Virus record (IMG/VR): IMGVR_UViG_2585427794_000002
Direction: 5' to 3' (one strand)
DNA length: 11,086 nucleotides
DNA from: a virus
Lineage: Duplodnaviria; Heunggongvirae; Uroviricota; Caudoviricetes
The translations under genes and the position numbers were made by a program. The notes beneath the pieces are model-generated. The model searched no databases, was not told the origin of the DNA, and worked only from the letters and a program-made list of their open reading frames with translations. Below, piece after piece: positions 1 through 6,680 of this stretch (its first letter is position 1; each line of letters begins with the position of its first letter).

Positions 1-2469
1 CAAGGTCCGGCAACTTCCGACTCCGGTATAGAAGTTAACCAGAATATAGCTGTCGCCAGAGCGGGTGACCTTATAAGCGCCTGATTCGGCATTCCAGGGA
101 ACGCCCCCATCCGCATCGGCATATGTATCCGTTGCCCTTCTGGCAAAAGCAGCCACATGCGCGGCGGTTAAAGTGATATCAGTAGAACCATCAAATGGAA
201 CACCGGATATTTTTCTTGCAGTCTGAAGTTTTGTAGCAGTTGCAGCATTACCAGTGGTGTTCTGATTACCCGTAGTGTTTACACCTGGAAGGTTAATATT
301 TGCAGAACCGTCGAAAACAACTCCACCGATAGATCTTGCCGTCTGCAATTTCGTGGCTGTACTTGCATTACCATTCAATGAACCAGTTAATCCACCTGTA
401 ACAGACAACGGACCTGAAACTGTTCCTCCGGTTGTTGGCAGTGCTCCAATATCTGATGGTGTAGGTTTCTGATGTGAGCTATACATCGTATAAACAACAC
501 CATAGGTAACGCTGGAAGGCTTACTCGCTGAATATGTTGGCGAGGTATAAACAGAAACTGTCGCATTTGCAGTACAATCCCAATGGATATTTACACGAGT
601 CGCATAATTGCCAATCTCAACGTAAATATCATATGTATCGCCGGATGTGTTGATCCAGGCGAAATTCGTTAATCCGACGGCTGTACGCTTCCACAAAGCC
701 CCGGTAATTCCTTTGGGGTTTCCATTGCCTGCTCGTAGAACCAGTTCTGAAATGCCTGCCTGATGTGGGGAACCGACGTTGTAACCAGCGCCACCAATCA
801 ATGCGATGTAAACGATGGAACTCGCTTGTGGCATGGTAACCGTAGCCAGTTTGAACCACCCAGCCCCGCCAGAGAAAGACATCGTTACTGAATTTAAAGT
901 ACCAATATCTTTCGGCGTTAATGTTATATCCGCAGTCAGTGCTTTTCCGTTAACTTTTCGGTTAGATGGCACCCTGCTATTCGCATTGTCATTGGCTGCT
1001 TTAACTGCTTTTGGCGTTGCGGCCAGCGATTCACTGGTGCTATCAACAGCACTGCTAAGTTTCACAACACCTTTAGTTGTAAGGCTTGCGTCTTCCATCG
1101 CAACTGCACCGGCAATCTCTTCAGCACGATCAGCAGCAGCTTCCGCACGGGTCGCAGCGGATTCAGCAGCAGTTTTGCTCTGAGATGCTGCCGTCGCACT
1201 GCCTGCCGCCTCTGTTGCTTTCGTGGATGCCGTCGTGGCGCTGCCCTTCGCTGCTGACGCCTGTCTGGTCGCCTCATCTTTTGAAGCAGACGCAGATGAT
1301 GCCGATGACGCTGCCGAACTGGCGGACGATGCGGCTGCCGTTTTTGAGGATTCTGCACGGGTTTCCGACGCTTTCGCATTCGTTTCGGATGTCTTCGCTG
1401 CGGAAGCAGACCTCGCTGCTGCGCTGGCCTGTACAGCGGCTTCGCCAGCCTTCGTTGTGGCTGTTGAAGCGGACGATGCAGCACTTTCTGCCGATTTTCC
1501 GGCGGCGGTGGCACTGGCTGAGGCCTGCCCGGCACTTGTTGACGCGGCACTGGCAGACGACGCAGCCGCTGTTTTTGAGCCTGCCGCAGCTGAGGCACTC
1601 TGTCCCGCTGCCGTTTCAGAAGCCTTGGCGTTCGTCTCGGACGTTTTTGCCGCCTTCGCAGAATTTGCTGTCGCCGTTGCCGAGGAAGCTGCGCTGCTGG
1701 CGCTCGAGGCTGCGCTCGTTTCTGATGATTTTGCCGCCTCTTTTGAAGCCGACGCATCCCGGGCTGAGGTGGCAGCTTCTGACGCTTTCGTGGTCGCGGT
1801 GGATGCTGAAGTGGCTGCTGATTGTTGTGACGCTGCCGCATTCGTTTCTGACGTTTTTGCCGCAGCGGCACTGGTGGCCGCCGCGCTTTTTGAGGACTCT
1901 GCAGCGGCAGCACTTTTTGATGCTTCAGTGGCCTTTGCTGATGCCGTTCCTGCGCTGGAAGACGCTGACTGAGCCGACGACGCGGCCTGTCCGGCTGACG
2001 TGCTGGCTGCGCGTGCTGAGCCTGCAGCATCAGTCGCATGGGTTGCCGCCTCACGGGCAGATGTGCTGGCATCACTGGCTGACTTCTTCGCGGCTGCCGT
2101 GTTCTGTGCCACTGCGGACGCGTTACGCGCCACCTCTTCCACCATCAGTTCAAAACGGCGCAGTGCCTCTGGCCGGACATCATCCTCCGTCATTGCACCG
2201 AGGAAATCATTCAGTGTGCCCGGCTTTGAGTCCTCATATACGGTGATAATCCCGGCGTGTGACGGCGGGAATCCCTCCACCAACAGACTGACGCTGTACT
2301 GACCATACTCGACGTCCATTGTGTAACGCCCGGCTTCATCCGGGTTTTCTGAGGCCACTGTGTTCACCACCACCGTGGTGCTGTTGCGCCTGGCCTTTAG
2401 CTGAATGGTGCAGTTTTGTATCGGCTTACCTGCGCCATCTTTCAGTACACCTGAAATCCGTACTGCCAT
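1..2469 (-). CDS. stf: Side tail fibre protein (Stf-like); partial, 3' end lies beyond the left window edge
   Basis: Hand translation of the minus-strand frame starting at ATG 2469..2467 is open for 823 codons to position 1. This frame is not in the ORF track because it has no in-window stop. N-terminus MAVRISGVLKDGAGKPIQNCTIQLKARRNSTTVVVN... closely matches the lambda Stf / Rac StfR N-terminus as I recall it. It is followed by a long Ala/Ser/Thr-rich low-complexity segment and distal tail-fibre repeats (GNASTATKLQTARSIGGVVFDGS...). A G-rich Shine-Dalgarno-like stretch (GGGGGGAAT) sits directly upstream of the ATG. Confidence 0.85.
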   Translation of the reverse strand, partial: MAVRISGVLKDGAGKPIQNCTIQLKARRNSTTVVVNTVASENPDEAGRYTMDVEYGQYSVSLLVEGFPPSHAGIITVYEDSKPGTLNDFLGAMTEDDVRPEALRRFELMVEEVARNASAVAQNTAAAKKSASDASTSAREAATHATDAAGSARAASTSAGQAASSAQSASSSAGTASAKATEASKSAAAAESSKSAAATSAAAAKTSETNAAASQQSAATSASTATTKASEAATSARDASASKEAAKSSETSAASSASSAASSATATANSAKAAKTSETNAKASETAAGQSASAAAGSKTAAASSASAASTSAGQASASATAAGKSAESAASSASTATTKAGEAAVQASAAARSASAAKTSETNAKASETRAESSKTAAASSASSAASSASSASASKDEATRQASAAKGSATTASTKATEAAGSATAASQSKTAAESAATRAEAAADRAEEIAGAVAMEDASLTTKGVVKLSSAVDSTSESLAATPKAVKAANDNANSRVPSNRKVNGKALTADITLTPKDIGTLNSVTMSFSGGAGWFKLATVTMPQASSIVYIALIGGAGYNVGSPHQAGISELVLRAGNGNPKGITGALWKRTAVGLTNFAWINTSGDTYDIYVEIGNYATRVNIHWDCTANATVSVYTSPTYSASKPSSVTYGVVYTMYSSHQKPTPSDIGALPTTGGTVSGPLSVTGGLTGSLNGNASTATKLQTARSIGGVVFDGSANINLPGVNTTGNQNTTGNAATATKLQTARKISGVPFDGSTDITLTAAHVAAFARRATDTYADADGGVPWNAESGAYKVTRSGDSYILVNFYTGVGSCRTL
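169..372 (-). repeat. Two tandem ~28-aa phage tail-fibre repeats inside stf (about 169..252 and 289..372)
   Basis: Encoded peptides GNASTATKLQTARSIGGVVFDGSANINL and GNAATATKLQTARKISGVPFDGSTDITL. The underlying DNA is a direct imperfect repeat (tgcattacc...ttgccgtctgcaa / tgcagcattacc...ttgcagtctgaag). Confidence 0.6.
1110..2130 (-). repeat. Low-complexity Ala/Ser/Thr-rich coding repeat region of stf with a recurring KTSETNA motif
   Basis: Near-identical DNA motifs gcattcgtttcggatgtcttcgc (1375..1397), gcgttcgtctcggacgtttttgc (1628..1650) and gcattcgtttctgacgtttttgc (1838..1860) each encode AKTSETNA in the stf frame. GC-rich codon-periodic repetition generates spurious long ORFs in other frames on both strands. 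Confidence 0.65.
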
Positions 2470-2480
2470 ATTCCCCCCAC

Positions 2481-2507
2481 AAAAAAGCCCGCCTGAACCG
2501 GCGGGCT
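2481..2507 (-). terminator. Rho-independent terminator downstream of lom
   Basis: Minus-strand transcript reads GCCCGCC-GGUUCA-GGCGGGC followed by UUUUUUG. It lies between the lom stop (2534) and the stf start (2469). Confidence 0.6.
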
Positions 2508-2533
2508 GTCATAACACTGTGTTACCTGGCTAA

Positions 2534-3133
2534 TCAGAATTTATAACCGACACCAACGATGAAACTGTTGGTACGCCAGTCACCGCTGCCGGAGCCTTCA
2601 TAAGCGACGTCAACGGCCACGGATTCGGTCGGGTTAAACTGCACGCCAGCTCCCCACGCCAGAGACGTGTTGCTGTGGCGACCGTCATCACTTCCGGTCA
2701 GCACATCGTGCGTTTTCCCCTTGTTGTCAGTTACGCGGATATAATCCCCGGAGAAAGTCGACACACGGCTGTAAGCCATACCCGCCATCGCATACGCGCT
2801 GAACCATTCATTCACGCGCACAGACGGCCCCGCCATCACGCTGAACCAGCGATTACGCACGGAATCCTCATGCCAGCGGGTATCGCTGTAATGCGTTTTT
2901 TGCTCATCTTCAGCGTTGGCATAACTGAATGACGTAATCAGCCCCAGCGTGTCCGTAAACTCATAACGGTATTTCACGTTAATCCCGTTCAGATTTTCGC
3001 TGCCGGGAGCGTTCGTACGGGCATGAAGATACCCTGCGCTCAGTGTGGCCTGCTGCTCAGACGCCCATGCAGGCGCACCGGATACGGCCAGACAGATGGC
3101 TGCGGACAAAATGGCTGCACAAACTTTACGCAT
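2534..3133 (-). CDS. lom: Lom-like outer membrane protein (Ail/Lom/PagC family beta-barrel)
   Basis: 199-aa ORF with a signal peptide (MRKVCAAILSAAICLAVSGAPAWA) and C-terminal ...YEGSGSGDWRTNSFIVGVGYKF matching my recollection of lambda Lom. Position immediately after J matches lambda gene order. RBS GAGAGG lies upstream of the ATG. Confidence 0.9.
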   Translation of the reverse strand: MRKVCAAILSAAICLAVSGAPAWASEQQATLSAGYLHARTNAPGSENLNGINVKYRYEFTDTLGLITSFSYANAEDEQKTHYSDTRWHEDSVRNRWFSVMAGPSVRVNEWFSAYAMAGMAYSRVSTFSGDYIRVTDNKGKTHDVLTGSDDGRHSNTSLAWGAGVQFNPTESVAVDVAYEGSGSGDWRTNSFIVGVGYKF

Positions 3134-3157
3134 AATTACCTCTCGCTTTTCTGCAAT

Positions 3158-3181
3158 AAAAAAGGCGCCATTTCTGGCGCC
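3158..3181 (-). terminator. Rho-independent terminator-like hairpin between J and lom
   Basis: Minus-strand transcript reads GGCGCC-AGAAAU-GGCGCC followed by UUUUUUAUUG. It sits 20 nt past the J stop and about 25 nt before the lom start. Confidence 0.55.
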
Positions 3182-3200
3182 CGTATATGGGTTATAAAAT

Positions 3201-6200
3201 TCAGCTGATACTGATGCCTGCGGTGGCTTTCTTCATCACCACAACCAGCAAATCGCTGATACTTGCTGTGGGATACCAGTCATTTACCAGCCATGCTGAC
3301 ACCGAAAACTCCAGCGTCATGTGGCCGTGACCAGCTGGCATATCAATAACACCACTGTAAATCAGCGTATTATCCAGCGCGGTACGGTTATAAATTTCAG
3401 CACCATTTTTCTTCACTATCAGGCGGCATGAGGAGTAAATATCAGTATGCTCTCTCTCATGTTTAGCACCGCTGAATGCCACCGCCGGAATAACAATCTG
3501 CCGGTCAAACGGCTGATCGTCATAAATCCTGACGGTAATGGTCCCTGATGGCCACCGCTCCGGTGCCCGGGAGTCCCGCGGGAAAGCCTTACCCACTGTT
3601 TTGACAATATCGCCTTCAATCTGGTTGGCTGACAGTTTCCCTTTAATCTGACAGTTCTCATTTATCGTAACGTTGTTGAGCGTCCCGGCGTTCGCATTCA
3701 CACTGCCACTGATATCTGCATTTTTAGCGGTCAGCTTTCCGTCCGGTGTCATGGAAAATGCAGGAGGATTACCGCCGCTGGTAATGGTCGGAGCCGTCAG
3801 GCGTTTCAGGAACACGTCGTTCATGAATATCTGATCGCCCTGACCAACAAACATCGGCTTTGTGTTGCCATTCGCAGGATTAATCATCGCAATCCGATCA
3901 GCAGCCAGAAGCACCTGACTCTGCATACCTGCTGGCGTATTCTCAATACCGGCTCCGATACCCGCAATATAAAGGCGTCCGTCCTTCATCTGCTGCAGTT
4001 TCACGGCCCACATGCTGTTCAGGTTATTATTTGTATCAACCTGAACTTTCTGTATCTGCTGGATTGCCGCGCTCTGATTTTCCAGTTTTTTATTGACGGT
4101 CTGCGTGATTTCATTGCTGACATTCGTAATGGACGTCCTGATTTCAGCCAGGTCAGGCGCAAGCTGACCGTTATCAATCTGCGTCCACAGCTCCTGGGCC
4201 AGATGTGTTTTCCCGATTTCTCCTTTGAAAAAATCCAGGTAGCCTTCCGCATCATCGCTCGCCCGACCGACAGCCTCCACGAATGCCGATTTGCCGACTG
4301 TGTTCACACTGCGAACGTAAAAATAATAATCATGGCCCGGCTTAATATTGATACTGGCGGCTATCCAGTACAGCGCCGTACCAAGATAGCGGGCTGTGGT
4401 TTCAACCTGCCTGATATCCGCAATCCGCGTTTCCGAGAACCAGAACTCAAACTGTACCGTCGGATCATAAACCGCAAGATGCGGCGTGGCAGTTATCTGA
4501 AAATAGCCCGGCGTCAGCTCAATCCGCGACGGCGCTGCCGGGGCGGCAATCCGGAACGATACCGACGTCGGATCGCCCTGCTGTCCCCACGCATTTACCG
4601 CCCGGACCGTCAGCATGTAACGCCCCAGCGCCAGCTGCCTGAAGCGGTATGTGGTTTCCGTCGTCCGGGCCGTGCTGACCAGCCGCTCACTGCCGTCATC
4701 CGCTGTTACGGTCAGACGGAGCAGGAAGCTCACACCCTTCACCACCTTCGGCGTGTCCCAGCGCGCCAGCACCTGATATTCCCCGCTGTCTGCGGTGACT
4801 TCGGCGGTCAGGTGCTGCACCGCTGGCGGCGTGACACCATTCACCGTGCCGCTCTGGTCACCGTCAAAGTGCGCCCCGTTATCCACGATGGCTTCTTTTT
4901 CCGGTACATGCTGCACGGCGGTGATGGCATACGTGCCGTCGTCGTTCTCACGGATACTCACGCAGCGGAACAGGCGCTGGCGCAGCGTCGGCAGCTTCAG
5001 CCCCCACACGCTGTATTCAGCAACACCGTCAGGAACACGGCTCACTTTCACCTTCACGCCGTCGGTGACGGACTGAACCTCCACGCTGACCGGATTGCCA
5101 CTTCCGTCAACCAGGCTTATCAGCGTGGTACCGGAGGATGGCAGCGTGATTTCACGGTCGAGCGTCAGCGTCCGGGTCTGGCTGTTTACCGCCAGCACGC
5201 GCCCGCCGATGCTGATACCCGCATAGTCATCATCACAGATTTCAATGACATCGCCCGGCACATGGCGAAGCCCTTCTGCGCCCACGCTGAAGTCCACAGT
5301 CTGCGTTTCCAGCAGTTCTGTTTTAATCAGCCACAGCCCGGCGCGGTGTGCCTGCCCCCGGCTGGTACAGCCAAAAGCATCCATTTTCGTGACGTTACGA
5401 CCGTAACGGAGAATGGCCTGCGTATCTTCAACAAGCTCTGTCGCCGTCTCCCAGCCGTTATTCGGGTCAATCCAGTTCACCTCAACGGCATTATGGCGGT
5501 CCTTCAGGGCGCTGAAGCTGTAGCGGAACGGCGCACCATCATCCGGCATCACCACATTACTGCGGTTATAGGTCCACACCTTATCCGACGGTCGGTCCTG
5601 CACGAACGTCAGCGTCTGCCCGTTCCATACCGGCATACAGCGCATCGCAGAGCAGAAATCACTGAGCACATCCCACGCCTTGCGCTGTGTGGTCAGGTAC
5701 GCATTACAGGTGATGCGCGGCTCCGTGCCGCCAAAACCGTCCGGCACCGACTGATCGCAATGCTGGCCGATGACATACAGCGCCCATTTGTCCACATCCG
5801 CCGCACCAAGACGTTTCCCCATGCCGTAGCGCGGATGGGTCAGCATATCCCACAGACACCAGGCCATGTTGTTGCTGTATGCTGGCTTAAACGTTCCGTC
5901 CCAGATACCGCTGTATTGCCGCGTCTGCGGGTTATAGTTCGACGGCACCTGCAGAATACGCCCGCGCAGATGATAATTACGGCTCACCTGCTGGCTGCCG
6001 AACTGCTCCGAGTCCACCTGCACGCCGACCAGTGCCGTGTTCGGGTAGCCCTGTTTCACATCGATGATTTCGGTGTATGACGACCAGAGCGTTTTGTTCT
6101 GCAGCTGGTCTGTGGTGCTGTCCGGCGTCATCCTGCGCATCCGGATATTAAACGGGCGCGGCGGCAGGTTATCCACCACCACCGAGGCCAGATACTGCGA

Positions 6201-6680
6201 GGTGGTTTTGCCCTTAATGGTGATGTCTTTTTCCGTCACCCAGCCACCGTTACGCTGTATCTGAACCAGCAGGCGGACTTCCGACGGATTCCGGTCCCCC
6301 TTTGAGGTGGTTTCCACCAGTGCCTGCACACCGAAGGTAAAGCGCAGACGGTCGATGTTTGCCGACGTGATGGTCCGGGTGATCGGCGTGTCATATTTCA
6401 CTTCCGTACCCAGCACCGTCTCGGAGCCGGAGGATTCAAATCCCTCCGGCGGTGTCTGCTCCTGCTCACCTGCCCGGAACACCACCGTGACACCGGATAT
6501 ATTGGTATTCCCCTCACTGTCCAGCACCGGCGTACTGTTCAGCAGCACGCTTTTTAATCCGTCCACCGGACCTTCAATCGGCCCTTCGCTGATGGCATCA
6601 ATCGCACTCAACAGCTGCGTGGATTTCAGGTTATCTTTCGCTTCGCGCGGGGTATGCCCCTTACTGCTGCCTTTACCCAT
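3201..6680 (-). CDS. J: Tail tip / host specificity protein J (central tail fibre)
   Basis: 1159-aa ORF. N-terminal two-thirds ([45 protein letters not shown]...) is near-identical to lambda J as I recall it. Size and position (60 bp after I, followed by lom) match lambda. RBS GGAG lies upstream. Confidence 0.95.

Follow-up and report, generated by a model that had tools for sequence, protein, structure and literature searches.

A heptad-phased segment of a lambda-type side tail fibre gene as a probable coiled-coil rod varying mostly by whole heptads

In an 11,086-nucleotide stretch of DNA from a Caudoviricetes record (IMG/VR IMGVR_UViG_2585427794_000002; hereafter ‘the window’), we see that the segment at positions 1102–2130 very probably encodes the coiled-coil rod of a lambda-type side tail fibre, varying in length between alleles mostly by whole heptads. 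Five direct observations carry this reading: the periodicity of the segment, its homology to lambda Stf, a prediction of helix, the quantised length classes found amongst homologues, and the sequences of recombinant junctions. A first-pass annotation had described a low-complexity, Ala/Ser/Thr-rich shaft at positions 1110–2130 (aa 114–454), and the composition agrees with this (39% Ala, 24% Ser, 11% Thr); the label ‘low-complexity’, however, captures the bias but not the order, the segment being an in-phase heptad rod.

The reading frame of the gene remains open, in translation, from position 2469 down to base 1. At the N-terminus of its product we find the PF08400 / gpStfN collar domain of lambda-type Stf: the Pfam match spans aa 1–134 and covers the full profile (E = 1.6e-71), with residues 1–94 aligning residue for residue to the solved lambda Stf chain (9e7m/9mgh; E = 1.1e-49). 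The product also matches PHROG tail-fibre families. Its gene lies downstream of H-M-L-K-I-J and lom (the neighbouring ORFs being assigned by Pfam), which is the order seen in lambda, and in E. coli PK8241, 99.6% identical to the window, the complete gene is 3228 nt long, with tfaR and pinR after it; it thus occupies the tail-module position after J/lom and before the tail-fibre assembly gene. Assignment as a lambda-type side tail fibre (stf) gene is supported by these features taken together, namely the PF08400 N-terminus, the alignment with the lambda Stf collar, the place after J and lom, and tfaR downstream. The hairpin located between lom and stf consists of an 8-bp stem, 7 of its pairs GC, plus a T run, and is recognised by pattern match only; an Rfam scan of the window gave zero matches, and no promoter-like sites were found within 900–3300.

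On either side of the shaft the sequence changes character. Ahead of it, L, F, V and V of the heptads PEALRRF and ELMVEEV fall at the two positions held by Ala within the shaft itself. Beyond it lies a conserved motif (our C-terminal anchor for measuring shaft length) that matches residues 105–151 of phage Mu tail fibre protein S (5yvq, 8ju3; E = 2e-7), and which is present in homologues as 1–5 tandem copies of a 44-aa unit. Pfam returns no match to PF03406 (Phage_fiber_2) in the window’s 823 aa at E ≤ 0.1; in those homologues that carry this family it appears, from the layout of the repeats, to fall in the 44-aa post-shaft units, outside the shaft proper.

Table 1. Coordinates of the features discussed in the text (positions in the window; aa, residues of the stf product).
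Feature	Position	Strand	Remarks
stf-like side tail fibre gene, 5′ part	1..2469	(-)	823 codons; ATG 2469-2467; 3′ end beyond the window’s left edge
N-terminal collar (tail-attachment) domain, linker and first hydrophobic heptads	2131..2469	(-)	aa 1-113
Shaft	1102..2130	(-)	aa 114-456; 49 uninterrupted heptads; consensus x-x-S-A-x-x-A
KTSETNA heptad, copy 1	1837..1857	(-)	aa 205-211; opens the 15-heptad unit that L015 carries in duplicate
KSSETSA heptad, diverged copy of the KTSETNA motif	1711..1731	(-)	aa 247-253; left endpoint of the 16-heptad deletion
KTSETNA heptad, copy 2	1627..1647	(-)	aa 275-281; site at which the mosaic L017 changes over to the L023-type shaft family
KTSETNA heptad, copy 3	1375..1395	(-)	aa 359-365; right endpoint of a natural 16-heptad deletion (L027, P0128 class)
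15-heptad block absent from lambda Stf	1246..1560	(-)	aa 304-408; single 105-aa gap in the window-lambda alignment
Shaft end and conserved post-shaft motif	970..1110	(-)	aa 454-500; ...KGVVKLSSAVDSTSESLAATPKAVK...
Terminator-like hairpin between lom and stf	2486..2507	(-)	17 nt upstream of the stf ATG
Antisense ORF, 386 codons	1086..2246	(+)	spurious; stop-free beyond codon-composition prediction
Antisense ORF, 249 codons	1223..1972	(+)	spurious; frame of lambda’s annotated orf206b
Sense-strand +1-frame ORF, 337 codons	1062..2075	(-)	spurious

Straight after the N-terminal domain we see a seven-residue periodicity of the form A-x-x-A/S-x-x-S. When the shaft is laid out as a table of heptads, S occupies its consensus position in 37 of 49, the first core A is found in 35 of 49 and the second in 46 of 48. 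Self-identity of the protein reaches 0.38–0.47 at every multiple-of-7 lag and drops below expectation at other lags; against 1000 shuffles, the autocorrelation gives z = 6–10 at all 17 multiples of 7 aa tested, a degree of internal repetition that goes far beyond compositional bias, and the strongest 18 lags in the DNA are all multiples of 21 nt. Tandem Repeats Finder recovered no more than short, weak arrays, the copies being too diverged for it, and the periodicity was accordingly demonstrated by autocorrelation.

The true unit of repetition is this heptad (21 nt), rather than one of 210/253 bp. An AKTSETNA motif was said to recur at 1375, 1628 and 1838, in near-identical DNA spaced by 210 and 253 bp. 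KTSETNA does indeed occur three times and one spacing is 210 nt, but the copies start at 1375, 1627 and 1837, making the other spacing 252 nt (both multiples of 21), and the DNA is not near-identical; the 21-mers share 76–86% identity, falling to 66–71% when extended to 59 nt. The longest exact direct repeat anywhere in the shaft is 14 nt, a length attained by 23% of heptad-column-preserving shuffles, and repeats above the level of the heptad are weak (whole-shaft protein lag of 11 heptads, z = 3.2; DNA lags not significant). The 15-heptad block absent from lambda Stf resembles upstream blocks at offsets of −16 and −22 heptads (52–54% amino acid identity) and, at the DNA level, at −24 heptads (52.7% identity), with p about 0.002–0.003 against column shuffles; judged on this resemblance, the block is an old, diverged internal duplication.

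Amongst 124 distinct homologous shafts, each bracketed by the same two anchors and compared with the window as reference, 121 differ from it by exact multiples of 7 aa, the in-register lengths forming six classes at −32, −16, −15, −14, 0 and +15 heptads; the Stf of lambda is shorter than the window’s by exactly 105 aa (15 heptads). The predicted length polymorphism in repeat units amongst related prophages is therefore present, and is quantised in heptads. The remaining three shafts (−3 aa, +3 aa and −253 aa) are out of register and each derives from a single protein cluster; the last of these, a 239-aa protein (P0122), may be an assembly error. Change by whole heptads is thus a strong tendency, with 3/124 exceptions, rather than a rule. 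One homologue (P0155) has a very different, E/A-rich shaft between the same anchors, and this too is of in-register length. A single heptad phase runs from ~aa 112 to the end of the shaft in every close homologue (80 IMG/VR loci), and also in most of the more distant representatives, the shafts ranging from ~30 to 442 aa.

This diversity of length surfaced only with the N-terminal domain alone as query, the first protein search having retrieved near-identical shafts only, 107/120 of them of the same length. An apparent +44 aa class, derived from local-alignment anchor distances, was discarded: it represents an extra copy of the 44-aa post-shaft repeat, with the shaft unchanged. Most matches outside Escherichia and Shigella proved to be lambda-like contigs within unrelated assemblies; several were ~48.4 kb in length and at low (about 1–10x) coverage, a pattern suggestive of contamination.

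The recombinant junctions are found at heptads of similar sequence. In the −16 class, KSSETSA (aa 247) is joined to KTSETNA (aa 359) through a common GAAACGA microhomology, and in the −14 class STSAREA (135) is joined to ATSARDA (233). The +15-heptad class, known from one contig (L015), is a tandem duplication of 15 heptads whose two copies differ at 2/315 in-register positions; its junction was not contiguous among the matches listed from complete E. coli genomes. When junction 84-mers were compared with those genomes, the −14-heptad junction was the sole one seen as a single contiguous 100% match (H69); the search joins two parental pieces into one place, and so gives no frequencies. In a mosaic locus (L017) the change from one shaft family to another falls exactly at the KTSETNA heptad of copy 2: around this switch (heptads 233–275) each heptad shares 18–21 of its 21 nt with the window, and past it 15–21 of 21 match the other family (L023) over six heptads. 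Overall, homology at the junctions consists of 7–12 nt microhomologies inside similar heptads, with STSAREA/ATSARDA and A[ST]SA[AS]AA as further endpoint heptads in use.

Because the homology at these junctions is only 7–12 nt, we infer that the rod changes length by microhomology-mediated deletion or duplication, and not by classical unequal crossing-over between near-identical repeats. Every heptad would be a diverged copy of one 21-nt unit, leaving in-register microhomologies of 7–14 nt scattered along the gene; it is at these that deletions, duplications and inter-prophage exchanges would take place, the K[ST]SET[SN]A heptads being amongst the endpoints used. In survivors the rod would nearly always have changed by an integral number of heptads (~1 nm apiece), steps that would keep the coiled-coil register continuous between the flanking domains. 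The in-register bias could result from the placement of microhomologies alone, without selection on register; a change in length may itself be of adaptive value.

The first-pass annotation had viewed the repeats as substrates for unequal recombination or slippage, a proposal that holds in so far as length varies by repeats, but not for crossing-over between near-identical copies. Its mechanism, in which long near-identical repeats at 1375, 1628 and 1838 would undergo unequal crossing-over of the RecA type, we consider unlikely. Two K[ST]SET[SN]A heptads are indeed fused in one deletion class, one mosaic does switch at KTSETNA, and related stf loci, which could pair, number 2 per E. coli genome at the median and 15 at most. 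Efficient RecA-dependent exchange in E. coli nevertheless needs a minimum of roughly 23–27 bp, a figure below which all of the observed junctions fall; the copies have diverged to the identities given above, the longest exact repeat is no longer than column shuffles produce, and endpoints other than the KTSETNA-like heptads are used too.

It had been suggested that this region also explains the spurious long ORFs in other frames on both strands; all three that overlap the shaft are indeed spurious, but composition accounts for only two of them. An open run as long as ORF 1223–1972 arises in 30% of codon shuffles, and this ORF has a sub-threshold Pfam match only, whilst the frame of ORF 1062–2075, for which no Pfam match was found, is fully open in 17% of codon shuffles. 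ORF 1086–2246, by contrast, has 0 stops where about 10 are expected, and none of 2000 codon, column or synonymous shuffles reaches zero; its length exceeds the prediction from codon composition, owing to a near-total lack of T|A codon junctions (1 versus 16.8 expected). Broken down by type, C-T|A junctions number 0 against 9.8 expected in the window’s shaft, 1 against 11.2 in L015 and 0 against 4.1 in the lambda-like L060, and other T|A junctions number 1 against 3.9 (p = 0.06; no significant depletion), 6 against 6.0 and 2 against 2.5, respectively. The unrelated shaft family L023 shows no depletion (7 versus 8.2 expected). The 91 junctions that precede A-starting codons comprise 62 different codon pairs with C, G or A, and almost never T; since so many different pairs avoid T, a founder effect or simple co-inheritance looks insufficient as the source of the T|A depletion.

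It is quite unlikely, in our estimation, that the codons of lambda-type Stf shafts are under an unrecognised constraint, acting at the nucleic-acid level, that removes C-T|A junctions. Possible causes of the depletion include selection against a nuclease or restriction target, selection against antisense TAG on grounds unconnected with a conserved protein, and selection for a property of the 21-bp-periodic DNA that controls repeat recombination. That ORF 1086–2246 might be a real overlapping gene, shaping codon choice in the shaft, is highly improbable. Such a gene would be in keeping with the stop-free frame that synonymous shuffles fail to reproduce, and with the stronger depletion of C-T|A (antisense TAG) than of other T|A junctions in the window, L015 and L060; but 30/34 distinct same-length homologues have 1–5 stops in the frame, and four-fold synonymous diversity is not reduced (0.156 in the shaft versus 0.178 in the N-domain), the third positions of stf codons being the second positions of the antisense codons. 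The ORF has no Pfam match, and the stretch free of promoter-like sites includes the region upstream of it; its limits coincide with the shaft, and its predicted product is implausible (Leu/Arg/Pro/Trp-rich). An overlapping antisense gene was accordingly rejected on conservation and synonymous diversity, and the stops in homologues, together with that diversity, exclude a conserved antisense gene as the cause of the depletion.

Returning to the protein, Viterbi phase tracking follows a single heptad phase across aa 112–457 (346 aa unbroken). An AF2 single-chain model of the fragment aa 91–477 is all helix, with predicted helices at 5–165 and 169–386 of its 387 residues (mean pLDDT 73.7); the alpha-helical conformation of the Stf proximal coiled coil / PCoil is thus seen here by prediction only. 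No PDB structure covers the shaft, the solved lambda Stf spanning residues 1–94 only. The shaft is homologous both to the proximal coiled coil of lambda Stf, a trimer, and to the PCoil domain of E. coli prophage fibres.

It is very improbable that the segment is instead a mere biased, disordered Ala/Ser/Thr linker, whose repeats are chance products of low complexity. Those three residues do make up 74% of the total, and both the weak Tandem Repeats Finder arrays and the insignificance of DNA repetition above the heptad level would fit; but the homologous domains are helical and trimeric by experiment (PMC12617516, PMC3368898), the AF2 model predicts helix, 46/48 heptads carry Ala at position 6, and the lag-7 signal is never reproduced by composition-preserving shuffles. 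Autocorrelation, heptad position composition and the unbroken phase together refute the disordered-linker reading. Many phage fibre shafts are beta-structured. Least probable of all, however, is that the present shaft forms such a fibre (triple beta-helix or beta-spiral) with no coiled coil, as its commonness elsewhere and the resemblance of the distal half of lambda Stf to T4 gp37 (PMC12617516) might suggest, given a period of 7 with small residues 3 and 4 apart (a coiled-coil signature), an AF2 model that is all helix, the trimeric helical bundle with which the homologous lambda rod begins in cryo-EM (PMC12617516) and the alpha-helical nature of PfN-PCoil by CD (PMC3368898).

In the coiled-coil reading that we favour, the collar domain would dock on the tail tip and be followed by ~49 heptads in the form of a parallel, trimeric, alpha-helical coiled coil, with core positions a and d nearly all alanine (an ‘alanine zipper’) and with Leu/Val/Phe heptads capping the rod at both ends in the same register. 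It would serve as a stiff spacer, roughly 50 nm in length, that keeps the receptor-binding distal half off the tail; both the trimeric state and the length are put forward by analogy with the lambda and PCoil literature.

The coiled-coil nature of such segments and the multiples-of-seven length rule have already been published, the latter in 2012. The value of the present analysis is as a worked example, in which apparent low-complexity noise with three false ORFs would turn out to be a precisely phased coiled-coil rod, natural alleles indicating that rod length is tuned in ~1 nm steps and that heptad motifs are the sites at which distal receptor-binding modules are exchanged. For annotation, antisense ORFs over the shaft, lambda’s orf206b included, should not be called; when lambda-type fibres are engineered as chimeras, fusions should be placed so as to keep the heptad register, K[ST]SETNA-type heptads being exchange points that nature already uses.

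The closest comparison is with lambda Stf itself, whose domain map places a trimeric proximal coiled coil at residues 102–393, and for which cryo-EM reveals a trimeric bundle over the first ~120 residues; Stf trimers sit on the tail tip of Ur-lambda, where they give faster adsorption via a surface receptor, a role known for Ur-lambda only (PMC12617516). Lambda and the window have in common the N-terminal collar domain, the place of the gene after J and lom, the heptad register, many identical heptads (two KTSETNA copies amongst them) and the post-shaft motif, with DNA that is 84.7% identical over 1561–2469. They differ in that the window’s rod is longer by 15 heptads, i.e. 105 aa, inserted as one block (aa 304–408) and probably worth ~15 nm of extra length, and in that its distal half, past aa ~500, is unrelated to the OmpC-binding tip of lambda.

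The PCoil domain was described in the collagen-like tail fibre proteins EPclA/B of E. coli prophages (Ghosh et al. 2012, PMC3368898) as an Ala/Ser-rich A-x-x-A/S-x-x-S heptad region after PF08400, with allele lengths that differ by multiples of seven; it is alpha-helical (CD) and trimeric (SEC-MALLS; EPclA) (PMC3368898). Our shaft resembles it in following PF08400 (PfN), in its Ala/Ser-richness, in its periodicity and in its multiples-of-seven allele lengths, and the L022-type loci amongst our homologues are of the PCoil kind. Saying this, PCoil is about 120–145 aa long, Glu-rich and followed by collagen GXY repeats, whereas the window’s shaft is 343 aa long, richer in Thr/Lys, and leads into the Mu-S-like motif and a beta-rich distal fibre.

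A stable rod of Leu-poor heptads has a likely model in the alanine zipper of Braun lipoprotein Lpp-56, in which Ala fills a and d of a three-stranded, parallel coiled coil; the likeness is one of core pattern, and Lpp has 56 residues compared with about 350 in the window’s rod. In the fibre genes of T-even and P2/Mu phages, short conserved motifs (His boxes) act as exchange points that shuffle the distal receptor-binding parts. The window’s shaft behaves similarly, in that a KTSETNA heptad joins two shaft families; unlike those mosaic fibres, its motifs would be heptads of the coiled coil itself, such that exchanges also change the length of the rod in quantised steps.

The minus strand of the window carries a lambda-like tail module, in which Pfam assigns a tape-measure protein, M, L, K, I, J and an Ail/Lom protein. 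Downstream of these lies the stf-like ORF. Its residues 1–134 match PF08400 (‘prophage tail fibre N-terminal’; E = 1.6e-71), and residues 1–94 align nearly residue-for-residue with the lambda Stf collar domain, whose structure is solved (9e7m/9mgh), at E = 1.1e-49. The same 3.2 kb is present at 99.6% identity in many complete E. coli genomes, where the full gene measures 3228 nt, with tfaR and pinR next after it; relatives of stf are found in 4968 of the 5426 complete E. coli genomes, at a median of two places in each. From PF08400, the collar match and these E. coli counterparts, the ORF is a lambdoid prophage's side tail fibre gene, in agreement with the first-pass annotation. Terminator-like GC-rich hairpins with T runs lie on the minus strand in the lom/stf gap (2486–2507, ending 17 nt before the stf ATG) and the J/lom gap (3163–3182); these are pattern matches only, their count being no higher than in shuffles. 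Translation of the distal fibre also reveals two diverged copies of ATKLQTAR.I.GV.FDGS..I.L (window ~160–380, aa ~697–770), a motif matching several PHROG tail-fibre families.

Coordinates of the features discussed in the text
Feature	Window position	Strand	Residues	Remark
J	3201–6680	-		Pfam
Ail/Lom protein	2534–3133	-		Pfam
stf-like ORF	ATG at 2469	-		823 open codons to the window's left end; translation
KTSETNA copy	1837–1857	-	aa 205	
KTSETNA copy	1627–1647	-	aa 275	
KTSETNA copy	1375–1395	-	aa 359	
44-aa post-shaft unit	~970–1072		aa 466–500	one copy in window, five in L007
ORF	1062–2075	sense +1 frame		fully open in 17% of codon shuffles
ORF	1223–1972	antisense		reproduced in 30% of codon shuffles; frame of lambda orf206b
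ORF	1086–2246	+ (antisense)	386 codons	composition insufficient

The segment 1110–2130 (aa 114–454) is 39% Ala, 24% Ser and 11% Thr, and its repetition is that of a heptad. Protein self-identity stands at 0.38–0.47 at all lags that are multiples of seven residues (z = 6–10; 1000 shuffles) and under expectation at the others, whilst the strongest DNA autocorrelation lags (18/18) are all multiples of 21 nt; the internal repetition first claimed from reading the sequence thus exists, with a lag-7 signal far beyond compositional bias as judged by shuffling. Set out in rows of seven, aa 114–456 form 49 uninterrupted heptads with the consensus x-x-S-A-x-x-A (Ser at 37/49, Ala at 35/49 and Ala at 46/48), and phase-tracking by Viterbi keeps to one phase between aa 112 and aa 457. 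The flanking heptads (PEALRRF and ELMVEEV before; EEIAGAV and AMEDASL after) place Leu, Val or Phe at the shaft's two Ala positions, which suggests that these are the a and d core positions of a coiled coil.

Some details of the KTSETNA copies need correction. There are indeed three, and one spacing is 210 nt as first reported; the other is 252 nt rather than 253, which puts the copies 10 and 12 heptads apart, respectively, and the repeat unit is smaller than first supposed. Nor are the copies ‘near-identical’ in DNA: identity is 76–86% over 21-mers and 66–71% over 59 nt, and exact direct repeats within the shaft reach 14 nt at most, not above heptad-column-preserving shuffles. Higher-order repetition is weak, with a protein signal at 11 heptads (z = 3.2) and no significant DNA signal among whole-shaft lags above the heptad level. 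The 15-heptad block missing from lambda resembles upstream blocks at offsets of -16 and -22 heptads (52–54% aa identity) and, in DNA, at -24 heptads (52.7%; p about 0.002–0.003 across offsets); it is an old, eroded block duplication.

Homologues were gathered with the N-terminal domain alone as query, giving 80 IMG/VR loci and 150 representatives clustered at 50% identity. Every close homologue keeps one heptad phase from about aa 112 to the shaft end, over shaft lengths of about 30 to 442 aa; a few distant representatives (e.g. protein clusters P0172 and P0208) change phase. Between the same N- and C-terminal anchors we compared 124 distinct shafts, and the length polymorphism expected by the first-pass annotation is present: 121 depart from the window's length by whole multiples of seven residues, in classes of -32, -16, -15, -14, 0 and +15 heptads, and lambda Stf by one gap of exactly 105 aa. 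The three out-of-register shafts (P0061, P0112 and P0122) are each represented by one protein cluster; the first kind has a 3-aa deletion within ASSASSAASSASSA, another a 3-aa AAG duplication, and P0122, a 239-aa protein, a 253-aa deletion that may be an assembly error. Indels of 3 aa are the size of coiled-coil stutters and stammers. A further cluster, P0155, has an unrelated Glu/Ala-rich shaft between the same anchors and its length is still in register, which points to a constraint on the register between the flanking parts.

Directly after the shaft, homologues carry one to five tandem copies of a 44-aa unit, KGIVQLSSATNSTSE.LAATPKAVKAAYDLANGKYTAQDATT.Q (locus L007 and clusters P0057 and P0087), to which residues 105–151 of phage Mu protein S match; this makes it a second module of the fibre that varies in length, independently of the shaft. 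The post-shaft motif KGVVKLSS...ATPKAVK likewise matches phage Mu fibre protein S. Separately, assemblies labelled Pseudomonas, Shewanella, Oceanobacillus, Neobacillus, Kitasatospora, Desulfosporosinus and others contain lambda-like sequence (L088–L095, L100 and further loci), often at low (about 1–10x) coverage and in several cases as contigs of about 48.4 kb; almost certainly, lambda DNA has contaminated these public assemblies.

Natural recombinants support the idea that the repeats mediate variation in fibre length between related prophages. In the -16 class (L027, P0128 and three others) the sequence runs with the window as far as AAATCATCAGAAACGA, within KSSETSA (aa 247), and resumes after KTSETNA (aa 359); both sites share the core GAAACGA. 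The -14 class joins STSAREA (135) to ATSARDA (233); it occurs against two backgrounds (L007 and L069), and a complete E. coli genome (H69) matches it contiguously at 100%. The +15 locus, L015, is a tandem duplication of 15 heptads whose copies differ at 2/315 in-register positions, its junction falling within GCCAGTGC(C/T)GCG between heptads 198 and 303; this duplication is seen on one contig. Mosaics are represented by L017, L026 and L032: around its switch (heptads 233–275) L017 agrees with the window at 18–21/21 nt per heptad, and past it with the L023 shaft family at 15–21/21 nt for six heptads. Read from such junctions, the KTSETNA motif is a real exchange point, one of several. RecA exchange needs a minimum length of homology, and the junctions use 7–12 nt, which favours microhomology-mediated deletion, duplication or slippage over unequal crossing-over of the RecA type; of the two routes first proposed, slippage is therefore kept among those preferred and unequal recombination becomes the less favoured.

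Three long alternative-frame ORFs all coincide with the shaft, and Pfam returns no meaningful match for any of them. Attributing them to the shaft's composition, as had been done, suffices for 1062–2075 and 1223–1972 but not for 1086–2246, where about 10 stops are expected under codon, heptad-column and synonymous shuffling alike and every one of 2000 shuffles contains at least one. This frame is stop-free because T-ending codons are almost never followed by A-starting ones (T·A; 1 vs 16.8 expected), and the shaft's 1029 nt hold 2 TA dinucleotides against 33 expected; J (73 vs 76.7) and distal stf (43 vs 46.6) show no such avoidance. The depletion is chiefly of C-T·A (0 vs 9.8 expected in the window shaft), is shared by L015 and the lambda-like allele (L060), and is absent from the unrelated L023-type shaft. 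A conserved antisense gene is excluded by 1–5 stops in 30/34 same-length homologues and by a four-fold synonymous diversity of 0.156 in the shaft vs 0.178 in the N-domain. A simple founder effect looks insufficient as the source of the depletion, since 62 different codon pairs are used across the 91 junctions concerned. In lambda itself (L081, NC_001416), orf206b is annotated as a hypothetical gene antisense within the stf shaft (2292–2912); its frame, equivalent to 1223–1972, is kept open by codon composition alone, and it is probably an annotation artefact.

A single-chain AlphaFold2 model is helical throughout aa 91–477 save for one fold-back break; a similar fold-back in a lambda Stf model was called an artefact by its authors (PMC12617516). 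A structure search found no solved structure covering the rod. The shaft is a homologue of the trimeric ‘proximal coiled-coil domain’ (102–393) that follows the collar (1–91) and linker (92–101), and precedes the hinge and distal parts, of Ur-lambda gpStf as seen by cryo-EM/cryo-ET (PMC12617516). It is equally a homologue of PCoil, the Ala/Ser-rich region after PF08400 in E. coli prophage collagen-like fibre proteins, which has the periodicity A-x-x-A/S-x-x-S, is an alpha-helical trimer by CD, SEC-MALLS and EM, and differs in length by multiples of seven (PMC3368898). Four of our loci (L022, L024, L046 and L051) encode such EPclA-type proteins (PMC3368898), which share the N-terminal domain but have a short Glu/Ser/Ala heptad shaft that leads into long collagen-like G-X-Y repeats. 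The shaft observation is real once unit, strand, spacing and DNA identity are corrected; set against a published Ala/Ser heptad coiled-coil rod that follows PF08400 and varies in length by multiples of seven, and an allele that many sequenced genomes carry, our additions are modest—the C-T·A depletion, explicit junctions, and the use of K[ST]SETNA heptads as endpoints of deletions and mosaics.
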